A stretch of DNA of 64,000 bases from Bacteroidia bacterium (GCA_039924845.1 JBDTAC010000068.1:925-64924); one strand, 5' to 3'. Numbered from the stretch's first letter, positions 33,903 to 50,269 are shown. The notes: a model not told the origin generated them from the sequence alone. Program-made: numbers and translations.

Positions 33903-34090
33903 GCATAAATGCTCGATGCGATTGCATAAATGCTCAATCGGATTGCTATATCGTTCAGTCAGATTGAGTAAATGCTCAATCAGATTGCATTATCGCTCAG
34001 TCAGATTGGTTAAATGTTCACCGAAATTGCATTATCGCTCAGTCAGATTGAGTAAATGTTCAGCGAGATTGCATAATGTCCAGCGGGGGA
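33903..34090 (+). repeat. tandem array, ~8.5 copies of a 21-bp unit (42-bp super-period)
   Basis: Units: CATAAATGCTCAATCGGATTG / CATTATCGCTCAGTCAGATTG / AGTAAATGCTCAATCAGATTG ... each ending GATTG. Confidence 0.9.
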
Positions 34091-35190: not shown

Positions 35191-35195
35191 ATGTT

Positions 35196-35621
35196 ATGAA
35201 AAATAAATTACTATTTGGAATATTTTTTTTAACATTATTGTTCTGTGGATTTGTCCAATCCAAAAAGATTGACAATGGCTATTATATTCCAGGTCGTTAT
35301 AAAATGACGAAAACAAAAAGTAAAGATAAAAATTCGGATAGCGTGTTGGTAAGTGGAAAAATTTTCACCGAAAAAGGAGAATCCGCGTTTCAGGAACCTA
35401 TAAAATTTGAAGGTAAAACATCTTGGGATAATGAGAATTTATTTTCAGATGGCTGGAATTATGCAGATAGTACAGGATTTTTTAGCGTAAAAATAAAAAA
35501 AGGAACTTTCAAAATTCGATGTACATCTACTTGGGGTAAAATAACAACAAAAAAAATAAAATTTAATCCAAAATTTGCATATTACTTCATTATTTATTTA
35601 GGAGATTCTAAGGTGTATTAA
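35196..35621 (+). CDS. putative cognate immunity protein (secreted, carboxypeptidase-regulatory-like beta-sandwich)
   Basis: 141 aa; signal peptide (LLFGIFFLTLLFCG); immediately follows toxin cassette 1. Confidence 0.45.
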   Translation: MKNKLLFGIFFLTLLFCGFVQSKKIDNGYYIPGRYKMTKTKSKDKNSDSVLVSGKIFTEKGESAFQEPIKFEGKTSWDNENLFSDGWNYADSTGFFSVKIKKGTFKIRCTSTWGKITTKKIKFNPKFAYYFIIYLGDSKVY

Positions 35622-35677
35622 GGTAGTGTTCAGAATGTCACCTGCGTTTTTCTGTTCAAAAAAATAATTTTTCAGTA

Positions 35678-37234
35678 ATGGAAAAACAAGTAAAAGCGTT
35701 TTTGGTAAAACACAATGTGTCATACGTTCATGTAAACGTGCCATACGTTCATGTAAACGTGTCATACGTTCAGATAAACGTGCCATACGTTCAGGTAAAC
35801 GTGTCATGCGTTCATGTAAACGTGCCATACGTTCATGTAAACGTGCCTAAGGTTCAGCTAAACATGCCTTATGTTCAGCTAAACATGTCGTACGTTACGG
35901 TTTATGGAAAGATAAAGGAAGTAGTCAGGACAGCAAGCAGTGCCTTACCTGATTTAGCGTTTAACTACGACCCAAGTGGAAACCGCATCAGCAAAGTAGT
36001 GAAACCACACGGCAGCAGCAAGGAAAACGGAGGTACAGACGAGCCTTTGCGTTGGACTTATACTTATTACGTTCGTGATGCACAAGGCAATGAATTGGTG
36101 GTGTATCAGCAGAAGTTAGATACCGTTGGCACCAACATTAGTTTAAGTTATAAGGAAACCGAACGCAACATTTACGGAAGTTCGCGCTTGGGTACAGAAG
36201 TGGGCGCAACCGAAATGATTGGTGCATTGCCACTCACAAATATTGATACCATTAACCATTATTTGGGAAACATACATTACGAAGCTGCTAATCATTTAGG
36301 TAATGTGTTGAGCGTTTTCACGGATAAAAAGATACCGATACAAAGCCTTACCAATCCTATGCTAATTGCCTCTTACGAGCCGGATATACTTAGCAGCACC
36401 GATTATTATCCTTTTGGCGCGCCCCTATATAGCAGGAATTTTAACAATACTGCGTTTAGGTTCGGCTTCAACGGAATGGAGAAAGATAATGACATATACG
36501 GCACCGGAAATGCTTATACAACAGAGTTTAGAATGCTTGACACACGCTTGGGTGGCAGGTGGTGGAGTTTAGACCCTGATATAAAACCTTGGGAAAGTCC
36601 TTATGCAGGATTTAGTGATAACCCTATTGTTTATAGCGATCCTTTTGGAAAGGATATCACGAATCCTGGAAAATACGTTTTAAGCAACAAAGCATTAATT
36701 CAAAAACTAAAGGCATTTGATATTGCTTTATCAGCAATTTCAGGACGTGATATACATTCATACAAAATTCCTATTACTGGAGGAGATAGATACAGAGATA
36801 AAGACGGAAAAATACGTTCTAGGTCAAATGGAGGTATTATTGGAAAATCAGCATCTCAATCTAGGCATCTTCAAGAAAATGGTGCATTAGCAGTAGATTT
36901 AGCGACAGGAGGTTGGGATTTAAAAACATTAGAAAAGGCGGCTAAAAAAGCGGGTTTAAGGATTAACCCTGATGGAGAGCCTTATACTGATGGGCATTTT
37001 CATCTTGACATGGGATTAGGAAAAAACGCAGATGAGGCAAAAAAAGTATATGATGCCTCAAATCCAGATAAAACACAAAGACCAACAGATAAGGATTTAC
37101 GCGTTAATGATAAAGAGGCAAAGTCAACAAGTTTAAATAATGATACTGGAGGCTATAAGCCCGATTCTGTCGCTCCTGCTACTCAAGATAAATTAAAATC
37201 TCCACCGCCTGCTAACGAACAAATAAAACAATAA
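35678..37234 (+). CDS. RHS-repeat protein 3' fragment: terminal YD repeats, core end, and M15/LAS-family zinc peptidase (peptidoglycan-hydrolase-like) toxin domain
   Basis: YD repeats (AFNYDPSGNRISKVV; RWTYTYYVRDAQGNELVVYQ). Core end FRFGFNGMEKDNDIYGTGNAYTTEFRMLDTRLGGRWWSLDP...DPFGKD. LAS peptidase motifs SRHLQENGALAVD (SxHxxGxAxD) and DGHFHLD (HxH). The first ~75 codons are the translated 21-bp repeat array, so the true start is probably later. Confidence 0.65.
   Translation: MEKQVKAFLVKHNVSYVHVNVPYVHVNVSYVQINVPYVQVNVSCVHVNVPYVHVNVPKVQLNMPYVQLNMSYVTVYGKIKEVVRTASSALPDLAFNYDPSGNRISKVVKPHGSSKENGGTDEPLRWTYTYYVRDAQGNELVVYQQKLDTVGTNISLSYKETERNIYGSSRLGTEVGATEMIGALPLTNIDTINHYLGNIHYEAANHLGNVLSVFTDKKIPIQSLTNPMLIASYEPDILSSTDYYPFGAPLYSRNFNNTAFRFGFNGMEKDNDIYGTGNAYTTEFRMLDTRLGGRWWSLDPDIKPWESPYAGFSDNPIVYSDPFGKDITNPGKYVLSNKALIQKLKAFDIALSAISGRDIHSYKIPITGGDRYRDKDGKIRSRSNGGIIGKSASQSRHLQENGALAVDLATGGWDLKTLEKAAKKAGLRINPDGEPYTDGHFHLDMGLGKNADEAKKVYDASNPDKTQRPTDKDLRVNDKEAKSTSLNNDTGGYKPDSVAPATQDKLKSPPPANEQIKQ
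35716..35905 (+). repeat. tandem array, ~9 copies of a 21-bp unit (42-bp super-period), related to the 33903-34090 array
   Basis: Units GTGTCATACGTTCATGTAAAC / GTGCCATACGTTCATGTAAAC alternate. The shared skeleton with array A is gYtcaNNNaaaNNtgcNNtaYc. Lies in-frame inside the 5' end of ORF 35678-37234. Confidence 0.9.
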
Positions 37235-37318
37235 ACATGAAAAAATTAAGGGATAAACTAAAAAAATAGGACATTAGAAAAAAATGATTAGTACAAAAAG
37301 TGATTATTATAAATTTCA

Positions 37319-37810
37319 ATGTTTACGTCTAAATTTTTAAATCAAATGAAAATGCGAATATGCGTAATTCTGTTTTCAATATATTTTATTGGGTGCAAAA
37401 CCAATAATTCGAAAACAAATAATCTTAATTGTCCAGAATTTTATCCCGAAATTGAGCATGTTTATTGGGCAGAACAAGGATTTACAATACCATCTGATAC
37501 CTTACACGATTATTGGTATAGATTGATTACTTTTTCAGAGGAAGAAGGATTTTGTACCATTATAGAAGAACTGCGACAGGGAAAAGTTGAAGGAGCTGGT
37601 AAAATGCAAGTTGTTAAGCAAATAAATATTACACATGTAAAAGGAATAGAGAATGAAAATGGCATATCGTTAGATTATGATGTGAAAAAATGGATAAGCC
37701 CCAAAGAAGTTGTATTAATATTAGAGGAACAACCTAAAACGACAAATAATTATTCTTGCAAAATTGTAAATTTAGATAACTTATCCGTAAAAGATACGAC
37801 TCTAAAATAA
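37319..37810 (+). CDS. putative lipoprotein immunity protein for the M15-peptidase toxin
   Basis: 163 aa; lipobox-like ILFSIYFIGC; periplasmic localisation would match a cell-wall-targeting toxin. Confidence 0.45.
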   Translation: MFTSKFLNQMKMRICVILFSIYFIGCKTNNSKTNNLNCPEFYPEIEHVYWAEQGFTIPSDTLHDYWYRLITFSEEEGFCTIIEELRQGKVEGAGKMQVVKQINITHVKGIENENGISLDYDVKKWISPKEVVLILEEQPKTTNNYSCKIVNLDNLSVKDTTLK

Positions 37811-37875
37811 TGTTAGTGAGTAGTGCGATAGGTAGTGTTCCAATTTGCACCTGTCCTTTTTAAAAAATCAAAAAC

Positions 37876-38146
37876 GTATTTCAAAAAATAATTTTTCAAA
37901 CCAAAAAAGCATTTCAAAAAATAATTTTTCGGAGAAGAAAAATAAAAACTTGATTGAAAAAACGTATTTGAAAAAATAATTTTTCAAATCAAAAAACGGT
38001 TTCAAAAAATAATTTTTCAAACGAAAAACACATTTCAAAAAATAATTTTTCGGAGCAGCAAAATAAAAAATTGGAATAAAAAACCAGTTTCATAAAATAA
38101 TTTTTCAAACTAAAAAAAAGTTTTCAAAAAAATAATTTTCTGAACG
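37876..38146 (+). repeat. tandem array of about eight copies of the palindromic TTTCAAAAAATAATTTTTC motif with 10-35-bp A-rich spacers
   Basis: For example GTATTTCAAAAAATAATTTTTCAAACCAAAAAAGCATTTCAAAAAATAATTTTTCGGAG... repeated. A partial duplicate lies at 46311-46395. Confidence 0.9.
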
Positions 38147-38292
38147 AGAAAAAAAATGGTTTGCAAAAAAAAGTTTTTAAAAACCATTTCAGCCGTATCA
38201 GGGATGGTGTAGCTACAAGAAGGAGCAGCAGCAATTGACAATGGAGAATTAGTAATTAATAATTGATAATTACTAATTGCAGATTATTTGCA

Positions 38293-38402
38293 AGTCGCTT
38301 TTTCCTGATAGAAATTTAAACACAAAAACAATTTGGCAAAGTGTTATTGCCAACTGGCTCAACGAGAAAAAATACCGCTCGAACAAGTTCAATTATTGGC
38401 AG
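38293..38402 (+). pseudogene. decayed copy of the 3' end of the tyrosine recombinase gene 42554-43411
   Basis: About 110 bp (CGCTTTTTCCTGATAGAAATTTAAACACAAAAACAATTTGGCAAAGTGTTATTGCCAACTGGCTCAACGAGAAAAAA...CAATTATTGGCAGG) is about 90% identical to 43212-43320 but frameshifted. Fused to the following ORF. Confidence 0.65.
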
Positions 38403-39525
38403 GACGCTTTCCAATAAACGAGAAGCGTTTACAAAAGAATATGCCAAGCGATTAGAGCAGGTACAAATAGAATGCAAGGATGCGCTAAAAGTAATTGAGC
38501 AATACGATGGCAAGGATACTTTTTTTTATCTCGACCCACCCTATTTTAATTCCGACTGCGGACATTACAAAGGCTATACAGAACAAGACTACGAAAAGCT
38601 ATTACAAGCACTTGAAAAGATACAAGGTAAATTTCTACTGAGTAGTTATCCGTCCGAACTGCTCAATACCTACGTAACAAAAAACAACTGGCGCAAACAA
38701 GAAAAAGAACAAACGATACTTCTCAGTCATCAAACAAAAAAAAAGAAAACAGAAGTGATGGTTTATAGCTACGATGCGCTGCAACAAAAAATTCATACTC
38801 GCAAGCAAAAACAAGGGCTTCGGATAAAATATAGTGCTATAAAATGCTTGCACAAACAAAAAAAAGTGTCGTGGTTCGCAAGCATGAAAAACATCTATGA
38901 TGCGCGAGGGCAAGCCTTTCAGCCGACACCCTCAGATAAAGCGGTATTTAAAAAGCTCCATGCCTCTATGAACAATGGGATACGAAGTGCCAAATCTACC
39001 ACAGCAAAAAAGTGGTTGCAAAACAAATCTTTGAGTATAGAAAAGAGCGGAGCGGTATTTAATTCAGGACAAATCCATCATCGGAAAACCAAAGAATTTA
39101 TTGAAGAACTAAAAAGCATCGGATTTTTAATAGCATCCACCGCAGCTACCAATACAGGAGAAACAGGCTATTGTTGTTTTGGAAAAAACGCGATTCTTTT
39201 TCCACTACGTAACAAAGAAAACGAAGTGCTAAACTTTTATGCTATCGGCATTACAAAAGACAAACAGGAATATTTAAACAGCTTAGGACTTTATCCGAAC
39301 TACCCACATCCACAATGCAAACGCTTGTACCTAACAGAAACTATTTTGGATGCAGCTACACTTTTAGAATCCAATGTGATGGATAACAAAGAAGCTGTTC
39401 TCGCTTTGCACAACGGAGAAATGAGTAAAGAACATATCGAAGCGATAGAAGGATTAAATGACTTGGAAGAAATTATTTTAATTGAGAAATGTGGCTCTGC
39501 CACTGATTTACAAATTAAGAATTAA
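38341..39525 (+). CDS. chimeric/hypothetical ORF: C-terminal half of a D12-class N6-adenine DNA methyltransferase (DPPY motif) lacking its AdoMet-binding N-terminus, followed by an uncharacterised (possibly toprim-like) domain
   Basis: KDALKVIEQYDGKDTFFYLDPPYFNSDCGHYKGYTEQDYEKLLQALEKIQGKFLLSSY matches Dam-family motif IV and downstream region. Motif I (FxGxG) is absent; the recombinase fragment lies directly upstream. Confidence 0.45.
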   Translation: MLLPTGSTRKNTARTSSIIGRTLSNKREAFTKEYAKRLEQVQIECKDALKVIEQYDGKDTFFYLDPPYFNSDCGHYKGYTEQDYEKLLQALEKIQGKFLLSSYPSELLNTYVTKNNWRKQEKEQTILLSHQTKKKKTEVMVYSYDALQQKIHTRKQKQGLRIKYSAIKCLHKQKKVSWFASMKNIYDARGQAFQPTPSDKAVFKKLHASMNNGIRSAKSTTAKKWLQNKSLSIEKSGAVFNSGQIHHRKTKEFIEELKSIGFLIASTAATNTGETGYCCFGKNAILFPLRNKENEVLNFYAIGITKDKQEYLNSLGLYPNYPHPQCKRLYLTETILDAATLLESNVMDNKEAVLALHNGEMSKEHIEAIEGLNDLEEIILIEKCGSATDLQIKN

Positions 39526-39569
39526 GAATGCAGGATTAAGAATTACGAATTACAAAATGAAAATATAAA

Positions 39570-41414
39570 ATGGAAAACGAACAAATAATAAAGCAGCCTA
39601 TGGCTGTGGAAAACGAACAAACAATAGAACAGCCTGCGGCTGTGGAGGAGCAGATACGAGAGATAGGTGTAAGAGCCAAAGTTCAAAGAGTAGCAATTCC
39701 TGAAAAGGAAAACTTGAATGAATTTTATCAAAAATATGCCAGCGATGGAATTGCTAAACTCATTGCCTTGCCGCCACAGTTAAGAGTAGTGAATGAATAT
39801 AAATTGGTTTTAAGCAGGACGGAAAACGATTACAATGTATTGGGCGCGTTAGGTCAAGACTTGGGCAGTATGCAAATAACCTTGATGGTAGAAGAAAAAA
39901 AACACGGCAGAAAAGAAAGAGTAAAAATAGATTTATACGAGCGGCAACACCTCCTGCAATTTGCAGCACAAATCGCAGAACTGTTTCATCAAAACACTGC
40001 AGGCATAGAAAACGATTTAATCCTGCTGACGGATTTACTCGAAACTTTTCGAGAAAAACAAACAGAACAGGCACAGCCTGTTTTTAATAATAAAAGAAAT
40101 TACGCAGCCCTATTACCCGAAACAAAAAAAAATTGCGTAGCATTTTTGTCAAACAAAAATTTGATGCAAAACATAGACAAGCTGATTGAACAATCAGGCG
40201 TGGTAGGAGAAGAAAATAGTCGCAGACTTTTATTTGTTGTTGCTTCTACTTACAAGATGAAAGAAACACTTCATGTATTGGTTCAAGGAAACAGCGGAAG
40301 CGGAAAAAGTCATTTGATAAATACGATAGGACAATGCCTGCCGCAAGAAGATGTACTCAGTATGACACGAGTAACAAGTAAATCCTTTTACCATTACAAC
40401 AAAGAAGAACTGATGGATAAAGTTATCCTACTTCAAGATTATGATTCATTAGAAGAAGAAGCTGGATATGCTTTCAGAGAATTACAAAGCGCAGGAACGA
40501 TTCATTGTTCCACCACACAAAAGGATCGCACAGGAGCGATAGTATCAACGATGAAAACAGTCAAGAGCCATTTTGCTTCTTTGATAGCTACCACCCAAGC
40601 AGAAATGCACTACGATACCATGAACCGTTCTGTTATGATAGGCATAGACGAAAGCCAAGAACAAACAAAAAAAATAATGGAGTATCAACACAAAAAATTA
40701 GCAGGACACATAGACAGCAAAGAAGAAGAAAAAGCGAAATTTTTTTTACAAAATTGTATCAGAGCATTACAGCCGATGGAAGTTGTGAATCCGTATTCAG
40801 ATAAAATACAAATTCCGCTACAAGCTAAAACTATGCGAAGGCTACATACTCAGTACCAAGTTTTCATAAAACAAATCACGCTGTTGCATCAATACCAACG
40901 CAAGAAAGACGAACAAGGTAGATTAATCACTGAGGAACAAGACATAGAAATCGCGAGCCGAATTTTCTTTGATGCTATAATGATGAAAATAGATGACTTG
41001 GATTCTTCTCTCAGACATTTTTTTGATGAACTGAAAAACTATGTTACAACTATCAATAAAGAGAAACAGGCACAGGCACAGCCTGTTCTTTTATCCGAAC
41101 CAACAAAAAGCGAAAACGCGAATCAAACCGATAAAATAAATAGTCAGCCGCACAGCGGCATAGTCTTTACGCAAAGAGAAATTAGGCTTGCATTAAACCT
41201 AAGTAAAACACAATGCTTTCGGCAAATGGAAGAACTGGAAAAATTGGAATACGTGCAGAGAATAGGCGGTTATGCCAACAGAGGTTTTCAATACAAAATA
41301 ACCTATTGGGACGATATGAAAACCGAGAAAGAAAGAATTAAAAGCGCATTCTGCGCTTTTGGTGGTTCTTGGCGTTCCAAAGAGCTTGGAACGCCACCTC
41401 TTATGCAGCACTGA
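39570..41414 (+). CDS. P-loop NTPase, putative replication/mobilisation protein of the integrative element (primase-associated helicase-like / VirE-like)
   Basis: Walker A VQGNSGSGKSHL; Walker B-like VILLQDYDSLEE; C-terminal winged-helix-like region; N-terminal direct peptide repeat ENEQ(I/T)IEQP. Confidence 0.55.
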   Translation: MENEQIIKQPMAVENEQTIEQPAAVEEQIREIGVRAKVQRVAIPEKENLNEFYQKYASDGIAKLIALPPQLRVVNEYKLVLSRTENDYNVLGALGQDLGSMQITLMVEEKKHGRKERVKIDLYERQHLLQFAAQIAELFHQNTAGIENDLILLTDLLETFREKQTEQAQPVFNNKRNYAALLPETKKNCVAFLSNKNLMQNIDKLIEQSGVVGEENSRRLLFVVASTYKMKETLHVLVQGNSGSGKSHLINTIGQCLPQEDVLSMTRVTSKSFYHYNKEELMDKVILLQDYDSLEEEAGYAFRELQSAGTIHCSTTQKDRTGAIVSTMKTVKSHFASLIATTQAEMHYDTMNRSVMIGIDESQEQTKKIMEYQHKKLAGHIDSKEEEKAKFFLQNCIRALQPMEVVNPYSDKIQIPLQAKTMRRLHTQYQVFIKQITLLHQYQRKKDEQGRLITEEQDIEIASRIFFDAIMMKIDDLDSSLRHFFDELKNYVTTINKEKQAQAQPVLLSEPTKSENANQTDKINSQPHSGIVFTQREIRLALNLSKTQCFRQMEELEKLEYVQRIGGYANRGFQYKITYWDDMKTEKERIKSAFCAFGGSWRSKELGTPPLMQH

Positions 41415-41577
41415 GAAAAGCTCTTGGCGTTCCATAATTCCAAGAGTACATAGTTTACAGCAAGAATTAAAAATTAATTGAAAATGGATAATGGAGAATT
41501 GAAAATGAAAAAACACGAAACAAAAACACCGAACAAAAATTCTGCATTCTTAATTCTGAATCCTTAATTTAATAAAA

Positions 41578-42501
41578 ATGAAAAGCCTACCACTCTACAA
41601 CAAACAATACGAACAGTATTATCAAGATTTTGCAAAAGCATTGCAAACAAAAGGCTATGCTAAATCAGAAATGTATGCAGTAAGCGCACGTGAATTTTTA
41701 TTCTTTTTGGAAAGCAAAACTATTACAGACGTAAAACAGGTTAAAGCAAGCGATGTGATAGCATATTATGAATACTTAGGAGAAAGACCAAATAAACGCA
41801 GATTAGGCGGCTTGAGCAATTCAATGATAAGAGGACAGCTTTTTGCCCTACGCCTCTTTTTTGATTATTTGACGGATGTGGGTATCATAGAAGGTTCTCC
41901 TGCACGTTTACCAAAATTCAGTATCGGTAAAAATGGAGAAAGAGAAATGCTGAGTGTAGAAGAAACAAAAGAATTGTATCAGGCAACAAAAACAAAAAGA
42001 GAAAAAGCGATTCTATCGCTGGCTTATGGATGTGGATTGCGAAGAACAGAAATACAAAATTTGAATACGTCCGATGTACAATTGAGCAAAGGACTTTTAT
42101 TAGTTAGAGATGGAAAGAATCACAGAAGCAGAACTGTTCCACTTTCGGATAGTGTACTACAATCACTTCGAGAATATTTGATTTACGAAAGAGAACAATA
42201 CATCAACAGAAGACAAAAACACATCGAATCCTCTTTTATTTTAAACAATTCAGGATTAAGAATGCAAGGAGACAACTTGTACAAAGATTTGAAAGAAATT
42301 CTAAAAAGAACAACAATAAAAAAAGAAATCTGTTTGCACTCTCTACGTCATAGCATCGCTACTCACTTGCTTGACAAAGGAGCAGATATTGAATTTGTAA
42401 AGAATTTTTTGGGGCATCAAAGTATTGATACTTCACACATTTATTCCAAGCGCAGAAAGCAACAACTAAATTTTAAAATAGCGATTCACAGAAACAGCTA
42501 A
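41578..42501 (+). CDS. tyrosine site-specific recombinase (phage integrase/XerCD family)
   Basis: N-terminal SAM-like core-binding domain; catalytic residues R (GLRRTE), HxxR (HSLRHSIATHLL) and Y (SHIYSKR). Confidence 0.85.
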   Translation: MKSLPLYNKQYEQYYQDFAKALQTKGYAKSEMYAVSAREFLFFLESKTITDVKQVKASDVIAYYEYLGERPNKRRLGGLSNSMIRGQLFALRLFFDYLTDVGIIEGSPARLPKFSIGKNGEREMLSVEETKELYQATKTKREKAILSLAYGCGLRRTEIQNLNTSDVQLSKGLLLVRDGKNHRSRTVPLSDSVLQSLREYLIYEREQYINRRQKHIESSFILNNSGLRMQGDNLYKDLKEILKRTTIKKEICLHSLRHSIATHLLDKGADIEFVKNFLGHQSIDTSHIYSKRRKQQLNFKIAIHRNS

Positions 42502-42553
42502 TTGAAAATGGAGAATTGATAATTGAAAATTACAAATTGAAAAAGCGAAACAA

Positions 42554-43411
42554 ATGAAAACACTTGAAAATTATTTACACGAACAGCACCACACGGCACA
42601 AACGATTAAGAGTTATCTCTATACGGTTTCCGTCTTCCTCAGCTCACATCCGAAAGCCGATGAATACAAACATCAAGACATACTTAACTACATGAGCGAT
42701 GTTAGAAAATTCTATCCCGATACATATACTTCCAATACAGTACTTGCAGGTATAAAAAAGTATTATGATTATTTAATTGAAATCGGAAAAAGAAATTTTC
42801 ATCCGTGTAAAACGCTGTATTTAAAAAGCAAAAGAACAAGAGATATAATTCATCAAGATTTATTTTCAAGCAAAGAATTAGAAATACTGATGGAAAGAGA
42901 AGAGCGTTATGCTGACAACAAACTCAGAAATCAAACAATTGTATCCTTGCTGATTTATCAAGGACTAAGTGTTTCAGAAATTATACACTTAAAAACAGAA
43001 CACATCAATTTAGAAAATGGAATAATTTTTATCAAAGAAAGTAAGCAGCATTCTCAAAGGCATTTAGAGATTCATCCGAAACAATTTAATTTGCTTTACC
43101 GATTAATACACGAAGTAAAAAGAGAAGCACAGGTACAAACAGTACTCACAGGAAGCACAGGAAAACCGCTAAACAACGAACATTTCAATTATTTAATCTT
43201 TACCTATAAACCGCTTTTTCCTGATAGAAATTTAAACACAAAAACGATTCGTCAAAGTGTTATTGCTAACTGGCTCAACGAGAAAAAAATACCACTCGAA
43301 CAAGTTCAATTATTGGCAGGGCATCGCTGGACTTCTTCTACCGAACGATACAAACAAAATAATCTCAACGAACAAAGAACGCTTATCAATAAATGGTTTC
43401 CGTTAAATTAA
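42554..43411 (+). CDS. tyrosine site-specific recombinase (second, divergent paralogue)
   Basis: Integrase catalytic-domain pattern (LSVSEI ... R, HxxR-like GHRWTSSTERY). Its 3' 110-180 bp is repeated at 38293 and 46541. Confidence 0.8.
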   Translation: MKTLENYLHEQHHTAQTIKSYLYTVSVFLSSHPKADEYKHQDILNYMSDVRKFYPDTYTSNTVLAGIKKYYDYLIEIGKRNFHPCKTLYLKSKRTRDIIHQDLFSSKELEILMEREERYADNKLRNQTIVSLLIYQGLSVSEIIHLKTEHINLENGIIFIKESKQHSQRHLEIHPKQFNLLYRLIHEVKREAQVQTVLTGSTGKPLNNEHFNYLIFTYKPLFPDRNLNTKTIRQSVIANWLNEKKIPLEQVQLLAGHRWTSSTERYKQNNLNEQRTLINKWFPLN

Positions 43412-43420
43412 ATTTTACTT

Positions 43421-44347
43421 TTGTACTATGAATTAATTTTATTTCAAATGAAGGAGACACATTATTTAGCAGTTGAAACATCTAATATTACTGAGGATTG
43501 GGCTGATTTTTTAAATCAAAACAGGCTTACTAAATTAAATAAACACCCACAAACGATAGAGTTTGATATGCTTAATGTAAGATTTATTAAACCACATCAC
43601 GTTGTGTCATTAGCTTGTTTGATTGAAGAATATCATTTAAAAAAAATTGAAATTAGTTTCAAAAACACAAGTTCTAAAGGAGCGAAGTATTTGGAAAAAC
43701 TTAATTTTTTTCAATATTGGGAAGAAGGATTTAACAGAAAAGACTATAGACAAACACAAATAGGAACTGCATTTTGCCTTTGGAAATTACATCCTGAAAT
43801 GATAAGCCCTTATACTTCTATGTCGACAAATTATTATCGGAATCATTTTTTTAGCGGTAAAGATTTACAGCCGTTGGATACGGCTTTGGTAGAAATATTT
43901 AACAACATTATTGACCACGCACAATCAGAAGTGAGCGGATATGTTTTCACACAATATTATCCGAACAAAAACGAAATAGTATTGTCGATGTGTGATTTTG
44001 GTAAAGGAATTCCAAACACAATCAACACGTTTTTAAAACAAGAAGGGAAAGAACCTTTGACAGATGACGAAGCTTTGGAGAAAGCCTTCGAAAAAGGATT
44101 TTCCACAAAATCTACTCCACAGAACAGAGGTTTCGGGCTTAACAATGTTATCTCAGCTGTTAAAACGCTAAAAAGTGGTTTGACAATTACTTCAAATCAC
44201 GGATTTGTGGAACAAAATAGTACTTACTTTCGTAAAAGAGCCATCGCTAATAATTTTCCAGGTACTCAGATTGTAATTAAACTGAAAACAGAGAATCTAA
44301 GACCTCTTGAAACAGAAGAGATTTCCGAACAAGAATTTTATTTGTAA
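43421..44347 (+). CDS. GHKL-superfamily (histidine-kinase-like) ATPase with uncharacterised N-terminal domain
   Basis: N box NNIIDHA; G1 box DFGKGI; G2 box GFGLNN; no HisKA/DHp domain. Confidence 0.65.
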   Translation: MYYELILFQMKETHYLAVETSNITEDWADFLNQNRLTKLNKHPQTIEFDMLNVRFIKPHHVVSLACLIEEYHLKKIEISFKNTSSKGAKYLEKLNFFQYWEEGFNRKDYRQTQIGTAFCLWKLHPEMISPYTSMSTNYYRNHFFSGKDLQPLDTALVEIFNNIIDHAQSEVSGYVFTQYYPNKNEIVLSMCDFGKGIPNTINTFLKQEGKEPLTDDEALEKAFEKGFSTKSTPQNRGFGLNNVISAVKTLKSGLTITSNHGFVEQNSTYFRKRAIANNFPGTQIVIKLKTENLRPLETEEISEQEFYL

Positions 44348-44369
44348 CTTTGCAAAATATATATGCCCC

Positions 44370-44672
44370 ATGAACACTAAGACTGTAGTAATAAACCTGA
44401 TGGATACTGTTGCTGGTACAGCTACCACAACGGAGGGACTTGCTTTATACTTAGCGATGAGTAAAGCGATGGACACAGGCAAAAATGTAAAATTATCGCT
44501 AAAAGATTGCACTCCGTTATCGTCATCATTTCTTAATTCGACTTTCGGAGAATTGTATGACAGATACGGCTATGACAAGATTAAAGAACGTGTAGTCCTT
44601 ATAAATTATTTCCCATCTCACGCGATGGCAATTAAAAAATACCTGCAAGATTTGAATAATCTTGTTAGCTGA
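44370..44672 (+). CDS. STAS-like (DUF4325-type) small protein, partner of the upstream GHKL ATPase
   Basis: About 100 aa (MNTKTVVINLMDTVAGTATTTEGLALYLAMSKAMDTGKNVKLSLKDCTPLSSSFLNSTFGELY...). ATG 23 nt after the upstream stop; the track ORF uses an upstream TTG. Confidence 0.6.
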   Translation: MNTKTVVINLMDTVAGTATTTEGLALYLAMSKAMDTGKNVKLSLKDCTPLSSSFLNSTFGELYDRYGYDKIKERVVLINYFPSHAMAIKKYLQDLNNLVS

Positions 44673-44692
44673 TTTCTTGATTAAAATTGTTT

Positions 44693-44730
44693 AAAATCCA
44701 TTCTCAAAAGGAATGGATTTTTTATTTTTC
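44693..44730 (+). terminator. rho-independent terminator-like hairpin within the duplicated cassette leader
   Basis: AAAATCCATTC-TCAAAAG-GAATGGATTTT followed by TTATTTTTC; an identical element lies at 47430-47467. Confidence 0.7.
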
Positions 44731-44766
44731 ATGCAATTTATTTTGTATTTTTATCGAAAGAAAAAA

Positions 44767-45738
44767 ATGAAAAATACTTTTTCCATTTCAGTTAGTTTTT
44801 TTGAAACCTATACAGGAAGATTTAGTTTCGGCTTCAACGGAAAAGAAAAAGATAACGAGCTATACGGAACTGGAAACGCCTACGATTACGGCATGAGGAT
44901 GTACGATGCGAGATTGGGTAGGTTTATGAGTGTTGACCCTTTGACGGCAAAATATCCGATGCTAACACCTTTCCAATTTTCAAGTAATACGCCTATTGCA
45001 GGGATTGATAGAGATGGGCTAGAGTTTTATTATAAACCAAATGGACAATTTATAAAACGAATCGGTAAAAGTCAGCAAGTTTTTACAGCGGACGATGTAG
45101 AAGTTCAAAAGACTAAAACAGCTACAGTTTTCGTTCCAATAAATCCACGATCATTAAATATCAATCACTCTGAATTTATCAAATTTGCAGGTACTGCATA
45201 TGGAGAAAGTTCTGTCGGTGATAAAGTTTATAACAAAAAAGAAGTATGGGGAATAGCAAGTGCGATGTTGAATTATAAAAAAATTAGCGGGAAATCTGTT
45301 ATTGCTTACGCTTCAAGTAATCCAAACGCTCAGTTTAAAATATTTAGCAATACTTCAGACAAAGCAAGAAATGGAACATTTCAGCAAACTGCTATTGCTG
45401 GTGCAATTAATGCTTTGACAGATGGTGTAGATTACTCAAATGGTGGAACAAACTGGGCAGGAAATGACATTGCTAGCCCTAAAGAAAAATGGGCTGAAGG
45501 GTTACGTTTTTCCTCTCAAGCAGATAATTTATTTGGTTTAAAAAACAATGCTAAACCTGGCGTGGGATATTTTTTTAATAAAGCGGGAAAAGAAACTGGC
45601 ATACGAGGCACCTATGATTATAAATGGGAAACTACTGCTGCGTATGGAGGAATAGGAATAGGAGGTAAAACTTACGGAACTACATTTATGAAAGTTACAG
45701 ATGAATATAAAAAAGCAACAGGAGCGAAAGGGAATTAG
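44767..45738 (+). CDS. orphan RHS C-terminal cassette with uncharacterised toxin domain
   Basis: MKNTFSISVSFFETYTGRFSFGFNGKEKDNELYGTGNAYDYGMRMYDARLGRFMSVDPL...IAGIDRDGLE is the RHS core end with a DPxGL-type boundary. The following 240 aa are novel. The track ORF start at 44713 adds a leader-encoded artefact. Confidence 0.65.
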   Translation: MKNTFSISVSFFETYTGRFSFGFNGKEKDNELYGTGNAYDYGMRMYDARLGRFMSVDPLTAKYPMLTPFQFSSNTPIAGIDRDGLEFYYKPNGQFIKRIGKSQQVFTADDVEVQKTKTATVFVPINPRSLNINHSEFIKFAGTAYGESSVGDKVYNKKEVWGIASAMLNYKKISGKSVIAYASSNPNAQFKIFSNTSDKARNGTFQQTAIAGAINALTDGVDYSNGGTNWAGNDIASPKEKWAEGLRFSSQADNLFGLKNNAKPGVGYFFNKAGKETGIRGTYDYKWETTAAYGGIGIGGKTYGTTFMKVTDEYKKATGAKGN

Positions 45739-46264
45739 TACTTCATTTTGTTTTTTACTAATTGCCTTGCTTTTAAATTTGCCTTGTTTAGGACAAAAAA
45801 TTAGTATAAAAGATATTTCGAGCGAATTTCTTATGGGCTCCTCGATTGAGGATTCCTCATTGGATGTGTTTACTCGCCCCGACTCAATCCAATTTAGTTT
45901 ATCGTATAATCATATTTATAATACGAGTAAAGGGAAAACAGATTATTTTATCGTTAATCAGGATTCGTTATTTATCAACGTTGGACTTATTTACGACAAA
46001 GGATTAATGTTTGTTTATCAAGGAATATATAACAGCGACACAGTACGAAACAGTAACGTTAATTTTGTTTTATTCAAATCCCAATTAGAAGGATGCAATA
46101 GTGGTTTATGTGAGTTTAATTATTATTATTTAATAGAATTAGATGATGAACAAAAAGTTTCAAATTCGATTGAATACCTTTCAAAAGATGATAATATAAA
46201 AGACATTGTGGTAATTATGGATAATATCATCTTTACAAAAGGAATTTGTAACTGGGACAAGTAG
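45701..46264 (+). CDS. putative immunity protein (secreted)
   Basis: 187 aa with signal-like FCFLLIALLLNLPCLG; follows cassette 3. Start uncertain: it overlaps the toxin end by 38 nt. Confidence 0.4.
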   Translation: MNIKKQQERKGISTSFCFLLIALLLNLPCLGQKISIKDISSEFLMGSSIEDSSLDVFTRPDSIQFSLSYNHIYNTSKGKTDYFIVNQDSLFINVGLIYDKGLMFVYQGIYNSDTVRNSNVNFVLFKSQLEGCNSGLCEFNYYYLIELDDEQKVSNSIEYLSKDDNIKDIVVIMDNIIFTKGICNWDK

Positions 46265-46540
46265 GTAGTGTTGGTAGTGTTCCAATTTGCACCTGAGCTT
46301 TTTAATTCATAAAATAATTTTTCAAACGAAAAAAAAGTTTTCAAAAAATAATTTTCTGAACGAAAAAAAAGAGTTTGCAAAAAAAAGTTTTTGAAAACCA
46401 TTTCAGCCGTATCAGGGATAGCGTAGCCAAGAGGGGAAGCAGAGCAATGGACCATTCAGCCCCACCTAAATCCTCCCCAAAGGAGAGGACTTAAAAGAAA
46501 AAAAAATTGGAAATGATTTTGCCGATTGGAATTTCAAATT

Positions 46541-46719
46541 GCTAACCGAAAACAATTCCACAAAGTGTTATTGCTAATTGGCTGAACGAGAAAAAAATAT
46601 TCTTAGAACAGGTTCAATTATTAGCAGGTCATCGCTGGACTTCTTCTACCGAACGCTACAAACAAAATAATTTAAACGAACAAAGAACGCTTATCAATAA
46701 ATGGTTTCCGTTAAATTAA
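46541..46719 (+). pseudogene. second decayed copy of the tyrosine recombinase 3' end, retaining the stop codon
   Basis: About 180 bp is about 90% identical to 43235-43411 (…SVIANWLNEKKIFLEQVQLLAGHRWTSSTERYKQNNLNEQRTLINKWFPLN*) with no upstream gene body. Confidence 0.7.
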
Positions 46720-46786
46720 AAAAATGAAAAATTGTAAAATGGAATGAAATTTTCGATATTTTTGTAATAGTTAAAAGACAGTAAGT

Positions 46787-47233
46787 ATGCGTGTATATAT
46801 TGACACATCGGTTATAGGAGGATATTTTGATGAAGAATTTGAAGAATGGACAATCAAGTTATTTAAGGAGTTTGAAAAGCGAACGAAAATTCCTGTGGTT
46901 TCTGATTTAACTATTCAAGAACTCGAAAATGCACCAAAGCATATTATGACATTTTTTGAATCAATAAAAACGGAACGAATTTTGTTAGATACTGAGAGCA
47001 TACAATTAGCGAGGAATTATATTAAGGAGAAAGCAATAACAGCTAAATCCTTTAACGATGCATTACATATTGCAACAGCAACAGTTAATCGTTTGGATGT
47101 TCTTGTTAGCTGGAATTTTAAGCATATTGTAAACTTGGATAGAATTAGGCTGTATAACGCTGTAAATTTAAAAAATGGTTATCCATTAATGGAGATAAGA
47201 ACTCCAAGAGAAATTTTAACTAAAAATGAATAA
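46787..47233 (+). CDS. PIN-domain protein (VapC-like ribonuclease toxin)
   Basis: MRVYIDTSVIGG with acidic residues at the conserved PIN positions (D6; E/D in the ELE region; DALHIATA). Confidence 0.75.
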   Translation: MRVYIDTSVIGGYFDEEFEEWTIKLFKEFEKRTKIPVVSDLTIQELENAPKHIMTFFESIKTERILLDTESIQLARNYIKEKAITAKSFNDALHIATATVNRLDVLVSWNFKHIVNLDRIRLYNAVNLKNGYPLMEIRTPREILTKNE

Positions 47234-47398
47234 GAAAATGAAAACGGGAAAGAAAAAATTTGATGCTGTGCAAATGACACGGGACATCAGAAACAAAATG
47301 GGTGAAAAGTACTATCAAAGCATAGACCTTTTATTGAAGGATATGGAGAAGGTGCGAAAAAAATATAAAATTACGTCTAAGACACAAAAAGCTGCTTA
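47228..47398 (+). CDS. small basic ORF (56 aa) overlapping the PIN gene stop; possible partner/antitoxin
   Basis: ATGA overlap with the PIN stop codon; MNKKMKTGKKKFDAVQMTRDIRNKMGEKYYQSIDLLLKDMEKVRKKYKITSKTQKAA. Below the ORF-track length cut-off. Confidence 0.35.
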
Positions 47399-47429
47399 GT
47401 ACTATATTTATTCTTGATTAAAATTGTTT

Positions 47430-47467
47430 AAAATCCATTCTCAAAAGGAATGGATTTTTTATTTTTA
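47430..47467 (+). terminator. rho-independent terminator-like hairpin (duplicate of 44693-44730)
   Basis: AAAATCCATTC-TCAAAAG-GAATGGATTTTTTATTTTT. Confidence 0.7.
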
Positions 47468-47503
47468 ATACAACTTTTTTTGTATTTTTATCAAAAGAAA
47501 AAA

Positions 47504-48376
47504 ATGAAAAATAATTTTTCTATTTCAGTTAGTTTTGTTGAAACCTATACAGGAAGATTTAGGTTCGGATTAAGTGGAATGGAGAAAGACGATGAGATTT
47601 ATGGCACTGGAAACGCCTACACCACCGAGTTTAGAGAACTGGACACCCGTTTAGGTGGCAGGTGTTGGAGCTTAGACACGAAAACAAAAGCAGGGGAATC
47701 TCCTTATGTTGGTTTTGGTGATAATCCGATTGTTTACTGCGATCCTTTTGGTAAGGATACATTGCCTTCAAGTAGTAGCGGCTTACCTTTAAAAAATTTG
47801 AAACCAGTATCAATAGTGGCAGATAGACCAAAACCGCCTCCTACTGAAAGTGAAGTTCCTCAGTCTGCACAAAATGCTATTTTAGGAGATACGGTAAGTT
47901 TTGCTAAGAATAATGGAGAATCTTTGGATTTAATTGGTGATTTAGGTTCTGGTTTAAAAGAAACAGCCAAAATAGTAAAAAATAGCCATGTTGCAGCAGT
48001 AGTAGGATATGCAGGAGATGGATTGAATTTTATAGGCTACGGAGGCGACATTCTTAATTTTGAGGCTAATAGAGAAGATTACGTAAGTGGAGAAATAAGT
48101 GGCAAAAGATTTGCCTACAAAACAACAGGAACTGTTCTTTCGGTTGGAACGGACTTAGCAGTTTCTTATGGATTATTAGAGTCAATAGGGATTGGGGCAG
48201 GAATCGGTTCAACAGGATTTGACCCTGCTGGTGCTTTATTAGGAGGAGCTGTAGGAGGACTTTTCTGGTTAGGAGAAAAAGCGTACGATCATCTTCCAAA
48301 AAAATCTTCAAAAGAATATTCAAAAGAATCTCAAGAATTTGAAAAGATTATTACAAGTAATCATTTTATACTATAA
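47504..48376 (+). CDS. orphan RHS C-terminal cassette with glycine-zipper (putative membrane-disrupting) toxin domain
   Basis: MKNNFSISVSFVETYTGRFRFGLSGMEKDDEIYGTGNAYTTEFRELDTRLGGRCWSLD...DPFGKD, then a Gly-rich GxxxG segment (GIGAGIGSTGFDPAGALLGGAVGGLFWLG). Confidence 0.65.
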   Translation: MKNNFSISVSFVETYTGRFRFGLSGMEKDDEIYGTGNAYTTEFRELDTRLGGRCWSLDTKTKAGESPYVGFGDNPIVYCDPFGKDTLPSSSSGLPLKNLKPVSIVADRPKPPPTESEVPQSAQNAILGDTVSFAKNNGESLDLIGDLGSGLKETAKIVKNSHVAAVVGYAGDGLNFIGYGGDILNFEANREDYVSGEISGKRFAYKTTGTVLSVGTDLAVSYGLLESIGIGAGIGSTGFDPAGALLGGAVGGLFWLGEKAYDHLPKKSSKEYSKESQEFEKIITSNHFIL

Positions 48377-48385
48377 ACAGAGGCT

Positions 48386-48907
48386 GTGGACTCCTCGTTA
48401 AAACATAAAAACATTATGACCTTAAAAATTACCCTTAAAAACCAATTCGATGCCTTTAACTATCAAATTTTTGGGATTGTTATAATGGGTATTTATTTAT
48501 ATTTTTTTCCAGGTTTAGGATACTTAATAGCACTTACTTGTGGATGGTTATTTTCTGCTCTTCCTGCCATTTATTTACATATAGAATATTACTTAAGAAA
48601 CAAAGGAGAAGAAATTACCATAAATTTTGACGAACTAATTGTGAAAAAAAATGGTGTTGAAAAAAAATACAAAAACCAAGATTTTGAAAAAATAGTTGTG
48701 TACATGGCAGTATCGTACAATTTCGCCATTATAGGAATGCAGTATTATTTTTACACTCGCCTTATCACAACAAAAGGAGAAGAAATTATCATCACTTGTT
48801 TAATGACTCGAAAGATGGAAGAAGTATTAAAAACATTGGGTGCTCCTTATAAAATTAGTAGACTGCCCCTTTTTTACAGCTTGCGTTTTGGTCGGTTAAA
48901 AAAATAA
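48386..48907 (+). CDS. putative membrane immunity protein
   Basis: 173 aa with at least two TM helices (IFGIVIMGIYLYFFPGLGYLIALTCGWLFSALPAIYL); immediately downstream of cassette 4. Confidence 0.45.
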   Translation: MDSSLKHKNIMTLKITLKNQFDAFNYQIFGIVIMGIYLYFFPGLGYLIALTCGWLFSALPAIYLHIEYYLRNKGEEITINFDELIVKKNGVEKKYKNQDFEKIVVYMAVSYNFAIIGMQYYFYTRLITTKGEEIIITCLMTRKMEEVLKTLGAPYKISRLPLFYSLRFGRLKK

Positions 48908-50166
48908 TTTTTCAACCACCAATTATTGGAGAAAAAACAAGTTTCAAAAAATAATTTTTTCGAAAGCACTTTCTCAACAGATGCAATGACAGCATTTGCA
49001 ACGGTTTTGACTTGGTCATCTGTTAAATCATAAAAAACAGGCAAGGATATTTCACGCGAATAATTATCGAATGTAACAGGATAGTTTTTTACATCATATC
49101 CAAGCGATTTGTAAAAACTCATCATCGGAACGGGAATAAAATGCACGTTCACGGAAACATCTAAATCAAAAATAGATTGAATGATTTCGTCGCGTTGTGG
49201 TTCCGTAATTCCTTTTATCCGCAAAGGATATAAATGGAAGGAAGAAGTTTTCTCATTTGTATTTTGTTCTGGAATTTCTGCCCATTTGTGTTTGGAAAGG
49301 TATTGATTGTAAACAGAAATAATGTGTTTCCGTTTTACTAAGGTGTCGTTTTTATAACGCGCTAATTCTACTCTGCCAATGGATGCTGCGATGTCCGTCA
49401 TGTTGCATTTATAGCCGGGTTCTACAATATCGTAGCGCCAATTTCCTTTTTGTGATTTTGCCAGCGCATCTTTATTTTGTCCGTGCAAAGATTTTATGCA
49501 AAGCGATTGATACAAACTATCGTTATCAAAAGGAGCGGGAAAATTCAGTGCAATGGCGCCACCTTCGGCAGTAGTTAAATTTTTTACGGCATGAAAAGAA
49601 AAGACCGAAACATCTGTTAAACTGCCCGATGTACGGTTTTTATAAATCGCGCCAAACGAATGTGCTGCATCTGCGAGAATTAAAATACGACCTAATTTTT
49701 TTTGTTCTAAAGTATCTCCCGAAAATTTATTTTTCAAACGAATGACTAATTCATTTAATTCATCGTAATCACATGGAAATCCACCAAAATCCACTGGCAT
49801 AATTACTTTTGTTTTGGATGTAATTGCTTTTTCAATCGCAGAAATGGAAATATTAAAATCATTTTTATTCACATCCACAAAAACAGGAGTAGCGCCGCAG
49901 TGCATAATTACATTGGCAGTAGCGGCATACGTATAAGCTGGAAGAATAACTTCGTCGCCGGCTTTTACACCAAACCAACGCAACATTAATTCCATGCCTG
50001 CCGTAGCCGAATTTAAACACAGCGTGCTTTTGTTGCCGCAATAGTGTGTTATTTCTTTCTCGAAAAATTTTGTTTTCGGACCGGTGGTAATCCAGCCAGA
50101 TTGCAAGGCGAGCGTTACTTCGTCGATTATTTTTTGGTCGATGTGCGGAGGCGAAAATGGGATCAT
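48874..50166 (-). CDS. DegT/DnrJ/EryC1/StrS-family PLP-dependent sugar aminotransferase (ArnB-like)
   Basis: Start at MIPFSPPHIDQKIIDEV; PLP-lysine region (SFHAVKNLTTAEGGAI). The last ~25 codons are encoded by two copies of the palindromic motif (…KKLFFETCFFSNNWWLKNYFFNRPKRKL). Confidence 0.85.
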   Translation of the reverse strand: MIPFSPPHIDQKIIDEVTLALQSGWITTGPKTKFFEKEITHYCGNKSTLCLNSATAGMELMLRWFGVKAGDEVILPAYTYAATANVIMHCGATPVFVDVNKNDFNISISAIEKAITSKTKVIMPVDFGGFPCDYDELNELVIRLKNKFSGDTLEQKKLGRILILADAAHSFGAIYKNRTSGSLTDVSVFSFHAVKNLTTAEGGAIALNFPAPFDNDSLYQSLCIKSLHGQNKDALAKSQKGNWRYDIVEPGYKCNMTDIAASIGRVELARYKNDTLVKRKHIISVYNQYLSKHKWAEIPEQNTNEKTSSFHLYPLRIKGITEPQRDEIIQSIFDLDVSVNVHFIPVPMMSFYKSLGYDVKNYPVTFDNYSREISLPVFYDLTDDQVKTVANAVIASVEKVLSKKLFFETCFFSNNWWLKNYFFNRPKRKL

Positions 50167-50269
50167 AAAAAAAGTTTGAAAAGCAAAGGTATAAAACGAT
50201 TGAAAATGAAGAAACACTTTCGCTATAATCGGTCTTTTGTATAACTTTGTCTGCCAGAAAAATATTTTT

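Follow-up and report, generated by a model that had tools for sequence, protein, structure and literature searches.

The DNA stretch considered here, 64,000 nucleotides (nt) of a Bacteroidia bacterium (GCA_039924845.1, JBDTAC010000068.1:925-64924; hereafter, at its full length, the window), raises the question of why the 3' end of one tyrosine recombinase gene, int2, occurs three times within a single island, once as part of an intact gene and twice as a fragment. An earlier note on this DNA had offered two readings, namely serial integration and decay of related elements, or a crossover site embedded in the recombinase gene as in shufflons. The former is the better of the two: the copies are probably leftovers of related units that accreted in tandem, were eroded from their 5' side and later exchanged patches by gene conversion. 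The island (~34.3-48.9 kb) consists of co-oriented genes between a SpoU-type methylase gene (33032-33805) and a convergent, minus-strand gene for a DegT-family aminotransferase (48874-50217), and it is an array of orphan Rhs C-terminal toxin/immunity cassettes holding one recombinase/replication module. Its setting is that of a tandem pile-up of units, each originally a module followed by its cargo, the module comprising a methyltransferase and/or primase-like gene, a helicase-like gene, int1 and int2, and the cargo often a toxin-antitoxin or defence-like pair and then an orphan Rhs toxin with its immunity gene. One module survives in the window (38.4-43.4 kb), its own 5' end having been lost.

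The repeated int2 ends

The intact gene, its two partial copies and the sequences to their left are as follows (aa, amino acids).

42554-43411, plus strand: int2, second tyrosine recombinase of the module, 285 aa; the conserved module ends at its stop codon
38296-38404, plus strand: copy A, an int2 3'-end remnant (codons ~221-257), 95% identical to 43212-43321
46541-46720, plus strand: copy C, the remnant of a second int2 gene (codons ~229-285 and stop), 88% identical to 43233-43411
37831-38295, plus strand: left context A, made of a cassette-end motif (37831-37853), 33/55-nt tandem repeats (37865-38190), a conserved segment (38184-38232) and a spacer (38233-38295)
46264-46540, plus strand: left context C, made of a doubled cassette-end motif (46264, 46273), tandem repeats (46306-46397), a conserved segment (46398-46442) and 80 nt of unrelated sequence that include a small hairpin

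The last 200 nt of int2 (43212-43411) are the stretch found again in copies A and C, and by both repeat finding and alignment all three lie in direct orientation. Copy A corresponds to 43212-43321 with five mismatches and a 1-nt deletion (a missing A) over 110 nt (95%; blastn E 1e-43), and copy C, at 46541-46719, to 43233-43411 with 157/179 identical positions (88%; E 2e-62), stop codon included, its homology running to 46720, one base past the aligned end. The earlier note had reported the int2 tail as recurring twice, in direct orientation and at about 90% identity, and had named a failure of these segments to align to the intact gene as what would speak against it; on re-alignment the repeats hold. 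Its observation that copy A is fused to a 5'-truncated methyltransferase gene is likewise borne out, the open reading frame (ORF) 38341-39525 opening with the C-terminal half of a D12/Dam domain.

Copy A carries a frameshift, and a Trp codon replaces that of the catalytic Arg. Copy C retains an open frame, devoid of a start codon, in which the catalytic Arg is replaced by Pro. Over its aligned part, copy C differs from int2 by nine synonymous and two non-synonymous codons, a bias indicating divergence inside a separate, functional gene rather than decay of a duplicated resident int2. Identity between the two is unevenly distributed (Fisher p 2e-4): 70/89 positions (79%) agree in the left half and 87/90 (97%) in the right one, and copy A spans exactly the former, where it is 95% identical to int2. 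The int2 3' end is thus a mosaic, its left part resembling copy A and its right part copy C.

The right edge of copy A is a joint (38404|38405) to methyltransferase codon ~125, which lies inside a ATTGGCAGG stretch assignable to either parent and possibly representing a microhomology. Because the methyltransferase is a native gene of the module, as judged from a complete counterpart (P0232) in a related locus described below, this edge is a deletion joint into the module's own gene and not the end of an element, and it lends no support to the earlier proposal that the copies are attachment-like repeats delimiting excisable modules. At the other side, clear homology to int2 sets in ~24 nt further along the gene in copy C than in copy A, so that the 5' joints of both copies are probably not identical.

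Related sequences nonetheless precede the two copies. The 23-mer GGTAGTGTTCCAATTTGCACCTG is found in the window only at 37831 and 46273 (0 expected), tandem repeats containing TTCAAAAAATAATTTTT lie at 37865-38190 and 46306-46397, and an 81-nt CCATTTCAGCCGTATCAGGGAT segment (38148-38228 and 46362-46442) is 86% identical between both contexts. The shared left context described earlier is therefore confirmed as regards motif, tandem repeats and segment, but it does not reach the fragments themselves, since the ~65-80 nt directly upstream of them differ; that of copy A (38233-38295) resembles the module's own intergenic spacers. Motifs peculiar to this genome make up the left context, and a search for its sequences in the related loci gave no matches.

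Two intergenic motifs peculiar to this genome, TTCAAAAAATAATTTTT and AATGGAGAATTGA, are also met away from the island. TTCAAAAAATAATTTTT shows 18 near-matches in the window (3140-55149; 0.08 expected), 16 of them on the plus strand, and its presence at gene ends elsewhere in the window makes it a genome-wide motif and not an island-specific one. For AATGGAGAATTGA, 13 near-matches are found, all on the plus strand, at sites including 17771, 33809, 41490 and 42507; it stands directly after the stop codons of the SpoU gene and of ORF 16359-17750, and also in the spacers just before int1 and int2.

A conserved module ending at the int2 stop codon

Upstream of int2, the surviving module carries three further genes.

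38395-39525, plus strand: methyltransferase/primase-like remnant, the 5'-truncated first module gene, with Pfam, NCBIfam and PHROG methyltransferase matches
39570-41414, plus strand: helicase-like P-loop protein, 614 aa, precomputed Pfam PF27228 (MTBMA_p00010_2nd)
41578-42501, plus strand: int1, XerC/D-like tyrosine recombinase, Pfam PF00589, E 3e-34

The remnant reads from the C-terminal half of a D12 N6-adenine methyltransferase (to ~38775; Pfam positions 128-236 of 253 in ORF 38341-39525) through into a primase-like domain (~38940-39525). Its methyltransferase part is 65% identical to residues 128-260 of P0232, a complete D12 methyltransferase fused to a helicase-like protein that is followed in its locus (L079) by int1, int2 and a Rhs fragment. 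The primase-like half is conserved in ~70 loci, its DnaG_N match being weak (E 0.001). The helicase-like protein, the putative replication protein of the module, has more than 1000 homologues, some fused to a primase or a methyltransferase, and gives weak AAA matches against local Pfam; neither it nor the primase-like protein has sequence matches in the PDB. Among the recombinases, int1 presents by eye the catalytic motifs GLRRTEI, HSLRH and GH..Y and scores below the cut-offs of both the XerD and the XerC models; with the former, int1 reaches 158.9 bits and int2 81.7 bits, both under the cut-off of 329.6, so that neither is classed as a chromosomal XerC/XerD, and no search for a dif-like site was made. 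The int2 family is devoid of the first catalytic Arg (GLSVSEI as against GLRVSEL in XerA, the column being S/T/M/N/H in the family alignment) and of the His of the HxxR motif, features with which int2 may be a partly inactive partner of int1.

Related loci (L numbers) were collected by alignment of int2 homologues, 78 from reference genomes and 80 from metagenomes, with one more from a protein look-up, and the same layout is displayed by ~140 loci of Bacteroidota, with int1 always before int2 and co-oriented Rhs cassettes usually after it. In the genome loci, which contain 62 intact int2 copies, int1 lies directly upstream of int2 in all 57 cases with enough sequence, the helicase-like gene is present in 40/49 int2 contexts, and co-oriented Rhs-core cassettes follow within 6.5 kb in 49/56 (median gap 791 nt); the metagenome loci are laid out alike. 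Carriers include Flavobacterium isolates, Chitinophaga, Bacteroidales, Cytophagaceae and Vicingaceae, from soils, lakes, peat, sludge and isolates, and no relatives of the module were found in a viral contig collection when a phage origin was considered. The module is thus widespread in Bacteroidota and apparently undescribed, no account of a two-recombinase and helicase-like module with Rhs arrays having been found in the literature.

Dozens of pairwise comparisons place the end of module homology within ~40 nt of the int2 stop codon, often inside the last 2-7 codons, and beyond it the compared loci carry different cargo. One such pair, L059 and L063, is 97% identical over 10.9 kb up to 25 nt past the int2 stop codon, where arrays of 7.7 and 4 kb, respectively, begin, and homology resumes after them, so that both flanks are shared (93-97%). 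Variation of array content between strains, which the earlier note had called for, is hence seen here, and it starts at the int2 terminus. The two array breakpoints of L059 and of L063 each carry the 8-mer CCGTTAAA, which the int2 strand of either locus has nowhere else; in the window, int2 and copy C both end in it.

Accretion and truncation are both represented among these loci. Several modules per contig or genome occur in L003, L032, L036, L056, L061, L105, L014/L020 and L046/L048, multiple modules within related loci being co-oriented, and modules show graded 5' loss, nine loci retaining int1-int2 without the helicase-like gene and three a truncated int1. Orphan C-terminal pieces of int2, contig-internal and co-oriented with downstream cargo, are present in at least 15 other loci.

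Loci with orphan int2 3' ends: L004, L005, L017, L040, L048, L068, L071-L077, L154, L155, L157, L159

The 5' edges of these pieces are scattered (~aa 90, 103, 132, 158, 183, 200, 211, 221, 229, 231, 234 and 247). Orphan pieces of the N-terminal part were found in none of the loci; those seeded with an intact gene hold seven C-terminal pieces and no N-terminal one. The cargo behind such ends is shared between genomes, as shown by that of the window.

43421-46264, plus strand: resident cargo (B), with Pfam and NCBIfam matches: GHKL ATPase (43421-44347), STAS-like DUF4325 protein (44307-44672), Rhs cassette (44713-45738) and putative immunity ORF (45701-46264)
46787-48959, plus strand: cargo of the eroded unit C: PIN protein (Pfam; 46787-47233), 57-aa ORF (47226-47399), Rhs cassette (47450-48376) and putative immunity ORF (48386-48907)

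Cargo of type B also stands behind an int2 3' end in L067 (70%, 82% and 60% aa identity). An int2 fragment followed by PIN (77%), 57-aa ORF (71%) and Rhs genes, as in unit C, is found in L075, where it is cut at ~aa 185 and not at ~aa 229 as in the window. The fragment of L074 with its cargo matches the intact int2 of L063 with its cargo at 97.6%, with a sharp joint at ~aa 211, and the same relation links L071 with L028 and L017 with L010. Since fragment and cargo are homologous to intact int2 with equal cargo elsewhere, the fragments are remnants of whole units. The L005 fragment differs from its int2 by 16 synonymous and 8 non-synonymous codons and forms a mosaic of the kind seen in the window. 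In L077, three copies of a 420-nt unit, each ending in a decayed int2 3' fragment, stand between the toxin-antitoxin cassettes; that contig holds neither Rhs cassettes nor an intact module.

Some further features of these loci can be recorded. The first 6400 nt of L077 (1-6400) carry Fic-, HipA- and RelE-like toxin-antitoxin cassettes beside clpB. Several orphan fragments are intact ORFs with a start codon of their own (72-110 aa). L003 (10001-19010) and L056 (4878-12019) each hold two complete modules that face one another across a set of Rhs cassettes; the leaders of these cassettes are inverted repeats of 190 nt, with 87-96% identity, by which the array in between could be inverted.

The int2-end copies are in themselves ordinary scars, a common kind of genomic debris; following them has led to a conserved module that heads Rhs and toxin-antitoxin arrays and whose int2 stop codon is the point where conserved sequence switches to variable.

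Tandem accretion weighed against other accounts

Accretion followed by 5' erosion would have proceeded as follows. Related units would accrete in tandem, presumably by site-specific integration mediated by int1 and int2 next to the int2 terminus. Unit C would then lose everything upstream of int2 codon ~229, its PIN pair and Rhs cassette being kept, and a further int2 end, upstream of the resident module, would already have been cut down to codons 221-285 when a single deletion took its tail together with the first 125 codons of the resident methyltransferase, leaving copy A. The remaining copies would finally swap patches by gene conversion or homologous recombination and so give rise to the mosaic. 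The survival of 3' ends is best understood if deletions in the module are tolerated and those reaching into addictive or protective cargo are selected against. Retention of a promoter was considered as another reason and set aside, each cargo having by eye its own TAnnTTTG-like box 3' of the int2 stop codon. Single Campbell-type integration, by which the module or else a circle of cargo would have entered a fragment already in place, was also rejected, and gene conversion was adopted because the mosaic fits neither reciprocal product. With co-oriented modules, graded truncation, shared cargo and the synonymous bias in its favour, the serial integration and decay proposed earlier is supported, without the added assumption that all insertions used one attachment site.

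Several observations weigh against this reconstruction. Copies A and C stand behind homologous left contexts and L077 repeats its context-plus-fragment unit three times, which independent random truncations do not predict, so that an extra step, either duplication or propagation of a junction unit, has to be admitted. Three or four unrelated fragments (L005, L073, L075, L076) start at ~aa 183, at the motif YINE.R, a clustering that may exceed chance and would point to a hot spot of deletion or to selection for a short product, and many orphan fragments keep an open frame to the natural stop codon. No integration event has been observed and no attachment (att) site is defined, and the gene-conversion account of the mosaic is after the fact. 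Comparison is also limited by the lack of a close relative, the nearest int2 being 65% identical and the metagenome contigs scanned giving no exact match to the int2 terminus.

A rather unlikely alternative takes the fragments as working sites: an int1/int2 att site would overlap the int2 3' terminus, and cassettes carrying context plus fragment would excise as circles and re-insert in trans. Such a process would amount to integron-like capture with a piece of the recombinase gene serving as 'attC', an idea of equally low probability. It would explain why the breakpoint between module and cargo falls at the last int2 codons in many lineages, why CCGTTAAA flanks the variable array of L059 and L063 and ends both int2 and copy C, why cargo B is exactly bracketed by the direct repeats 43233-43411 and 46541-46719, why context-plus-fragment units are repeated in the window and in L077, and why the bias to 3'-end retention is strong. 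Yet most cassette junctions in the ~140 loci hold no int2 fragment, the terminus is wholly missing from copy A, the fragments start at scattered points, and those of L077 have decayed termini. The search for an att- or attC-like site, in which 11-mers of the int2 terminus were compared with the downstream arrays and the opposite strand served as control, gave no general signal: shared words are no commoner on the same strand, the 142 matches there against 109 on the opposite one deriving largely from the window itself and one inverted pair, and no general repeat was found at element junctions in loci other than L059, L063 and the window. Nor is identity at third codon positions raised in the int2 3' region, being 0.26-0.36 there as against 0.32 overall and staying flat at 0.26-0.37 across 114 int2 genes, and the near-identical right halves of int2 and copy C misfit a simple reciprocal crossover between diverged partners. 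We regard as doubtful the wider proposition that an undescribed gene-capture platform operates in Bacteroidota, in which two XerC/D-like recombinases (one without the catalytic Arg) and a helicase-like protein would act at a site overlapping the last int2 codons, Rhs, immunity, toxin-antitoxin and defence cassettes would be inserted and shuffled there, and those carrying an int2 3' end (as in the window and L077) would be mobilisable in trans.

It is more improbable still that no serial integration took place and that one unit was expanded by segmental duplication and unequal recombination between int2-like or Rhs-leader repeats, its cargo being swapped and its copies homogenised. The left context common to copies A and C, the Rhs leaders 89% identical between cassettes, the identity mosaics of the window and L005 and the composition of the context from motifs specific to this genome would all follow from such an expansion. 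The differences between copy C and int2 in the left half lie, however, mainly at synonymous sites and hence point to a separate functional gene, and the accessory pairs, GHKL/STAS and PIN/57-aa ORF, are unrelated. Moreover, both units have homologues in other genomes, cargo C together with its fragment and cargo B together with its int2 end, and divergence there is about equal in the int2 part and in the cargo, so that the units are older than the array of the window; the data lean to units B and C each being closer to units of other genomes than to each other. An artefact, in the form of a chimeric metagenome-assembled genome joined across a repeat, or a shufflon-type inversion switch, appears hardly credible. 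The window does come from a metagenome-assembled contig, and the related contigs L066, L067, L069 and L070 break inside int2, but copies that are 5-12% diverged and lie in unique contexts make collapse or chimerism at identical repeats unlikely, and the architecture recurs in isolate genomes of Flavobacterium (L036, L042, L050, L073). As for inversion, all copies are direct, with no inverted partner and nothing invertible between them, which rules it out and with it the shufflon comparison of the earlier note; the four weak inverted repeats detected in 36-49 kb do not pair the int2 end. Tandem accretion with 5' erosion remains the reading that we prefer.

Cassettes of the island and relation to known systems

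Orphan Rhs ORFs begin at 34288, 35678, 44713 and 47450, and behind each stands a small ORF placed where an immunity gene would be expected, its putative function being taken from this position. The end of the Rhs core (TIGR03696) is recognised in three of the four, 34288, 35678 (below curated cut-off) and 44713, with differing tips after it, and the fourth (47450) is assigned by leader homology; the leader 44674-44883 is 89% identical to 47411-47620 and 79% to 36455-36656. Two of the cassettes lie upstream of copy A.

34288-35646, plus strand: orphan Rhs cassette, with a 300-aa ORF (34288-35190), a 141-aa putative immunity ORF (35196-35621) and GGTAGTGTTCAGAATGTCACCTG at 35622
35678-37810, plus strand: 5'-truncated Rhs fragment, 518 aa, with a 163-aa putative immunity ORF (37319-37810)

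The 300-aa ORF joins a Rhs core end (TIGR03696, E 5e-8) to a metallopeptidase-like tip (weak matches), and the 518-aa fragment comprises 21-nt tandem repeats (35717-35896), a YD-repeat region, the core (TIGR03696, aa 243-324) and a toxin tip; Rhs fragments homologous to it follow int2 in L079, L028 and L075. Arrays of the 21-nt repeat, with 8-9 copies each, occupy the left edge of the island (33903-34076) and the 5' end of Rhs ORF 35678-37234 (35717-35896), and they give spurious repetitive ORFs on both strands. The GHKL ATPase and STAS-like DUF4325 pair stands directly 3' of int2 in the window (43421-44672), L067 (313-1547), L013 and L062; the ATPase partially matches DrmA in PADLOC (E 3e-11), and the pair may be a defence or regulatory one. 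At the terminus of the array, two TTCAAAAAATAATTTTT motifs (48896-48959) overlap the end of the convergent DegT-family ORF, whose C-terminus is apparently extended through these repeats (48874-48960), an indication that the 3' end of that gene adjoins the array or was changed by it. Known RNA families gave sub-threshold chance matches only across the island, and no tRNA genes were found in the window.

The stop codons of the putative immunity genes in the window, with the exception of that of the gene closing the array (48386-48907), are followed by the directional, non-palindromic motif GGTAGTGTT (extended form GGTAGTGTTC..A.T..CACCTG), at 35622 (as GGTAGTGTTCAGAATGTCACCTG), 37831, 46264 and 46273. 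In related loci it is found in L059 (13417, 13526, 13769 and 14290), L063 (13313), L067 (3215), L018, L118 and others, and across them it is five-fold enriched on the int2 strand (30 against 5 sites; ~6 expected per strand). The homology blocks within the otherwise different arrays of L059 and L063 begin exactly at this motif, to which one Rhs leader of L059 is directly joined; it may mark a cassette end or a recombination point.

Among known arrangements, the Rhs cassettes of the island fit the Rhs C-terminal displacement arrays of orphan rhs tips and immunity genes (Jackson et al. 2009, as cited in PMC13183296). As in such arrays, the window shows core, variable tip and small ORF, co-oriented cassettes with a leader conserved at 89%, and 5'-truncated older copies pushed downstream. 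It departs from them in being headed or interrupted by a recombinase/replication module and not by a full-length rhs gene, and in holding non-Rhs pairs (GHKL/STAS, PIN) between the recombinase end and the Rhs tip; here the recombinase gene is itself 5'-truncated after the pattern of rhs genes. Gamma-Mobile-Trio islands, in which a tyrosine recombinase and partner proteins carry defence systems and secreted-toxin cargo (10.1101/2023.03.28.534373), share the principle of a platform of recombinase and partners with conflict cargo, but belong to another phylum and have other partners, int1 scoring 28 bits with the GmtY model (cut-off 340).

Integrons also place a tyrosine recombinase beside a variable, co-oriented array that starts at a fixed point and may hold toxin-antitoxin cassettes. 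This assignment was rejected: NCBIfam TIGR02249 gives 96.9 bits for int1 and 27.5 for int2 (cut-off 265), int2 is co-oriented with the array and points into it, in the window as in related loci, and no attC-like repeat was found at cassette junctions by the comparison of int2-terminus words. Unlike integron cassettes, the cassettes considered here carry by eye Bacteroidota-type promoter-like boxes of their own. Integration of the SSV type, which splits the integrase gene, was discarded as well, the resident int2 being intact and orphan N-terminal fragments being absent from all loci.

Integrative elements may accrete in tandem at one site, as Xer-dependent elements stacked at dif do. The island has in common with these the tandem of co-oriented related units, with one intact and two fragmentary int2 copies in direct orientation (and multi-module contigs among related loci), the recombination-related ends and the degradation of older units. 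Unlike them, its units bring their own XerC/D-like pair, no att core is defined for the module (no search for a dif-like site having been made), and older units leave a fragment of the recombinase gene and not an att repeat.

A parallel in Bacteroidota is offered by rAID-1 arrays of gut Bacteroidales, with one recombinase and mainly immunity genes, and by the polyimmunity loci next to XerC/D-like recombinases described by Zhang et al. (10.1101/471110; PMC12247911; PMC3482391). By layout, a XerD-like recombinase heads in all of them a co-oriented, AT-rich array of conflict genes, and repetitive intergenic motifs and array content differing between related genomes are shared as well. The rAID-1 arrays are recognised by a recombinase at least 44% identical to BF9343_RS08045 and at least two co-oriented downstream genes with GC content of at most 41% (10.1101/471110); at least eight co-oriented ORFs follow int2 in the window, with GC 0.29-0.40 across 43.4-48.9 kb, a value that discriminates little because the flanking genome is also low in GC. 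The module described here differs in having two recombinases together with a helicase-like and a primase-/methyltransferase-like gene, and its arrays also hold toxin tips and are found mostly in environmental Bacteroidota. How orphan toxin/immunity arrays grow is explicitly left as an open question in the rAID papers, which state the mechanism to be unknown (10.1101/471110; PMC12247911; PMC3482391). To that question the module family brings defined joints, pairs of closely related loci with different arrays and a two-recombinase system in Flavobacterium isolates, and a capture platform at the int2 end, if real, could also be the mechanism by which immunity arrays of the rAID type grow.

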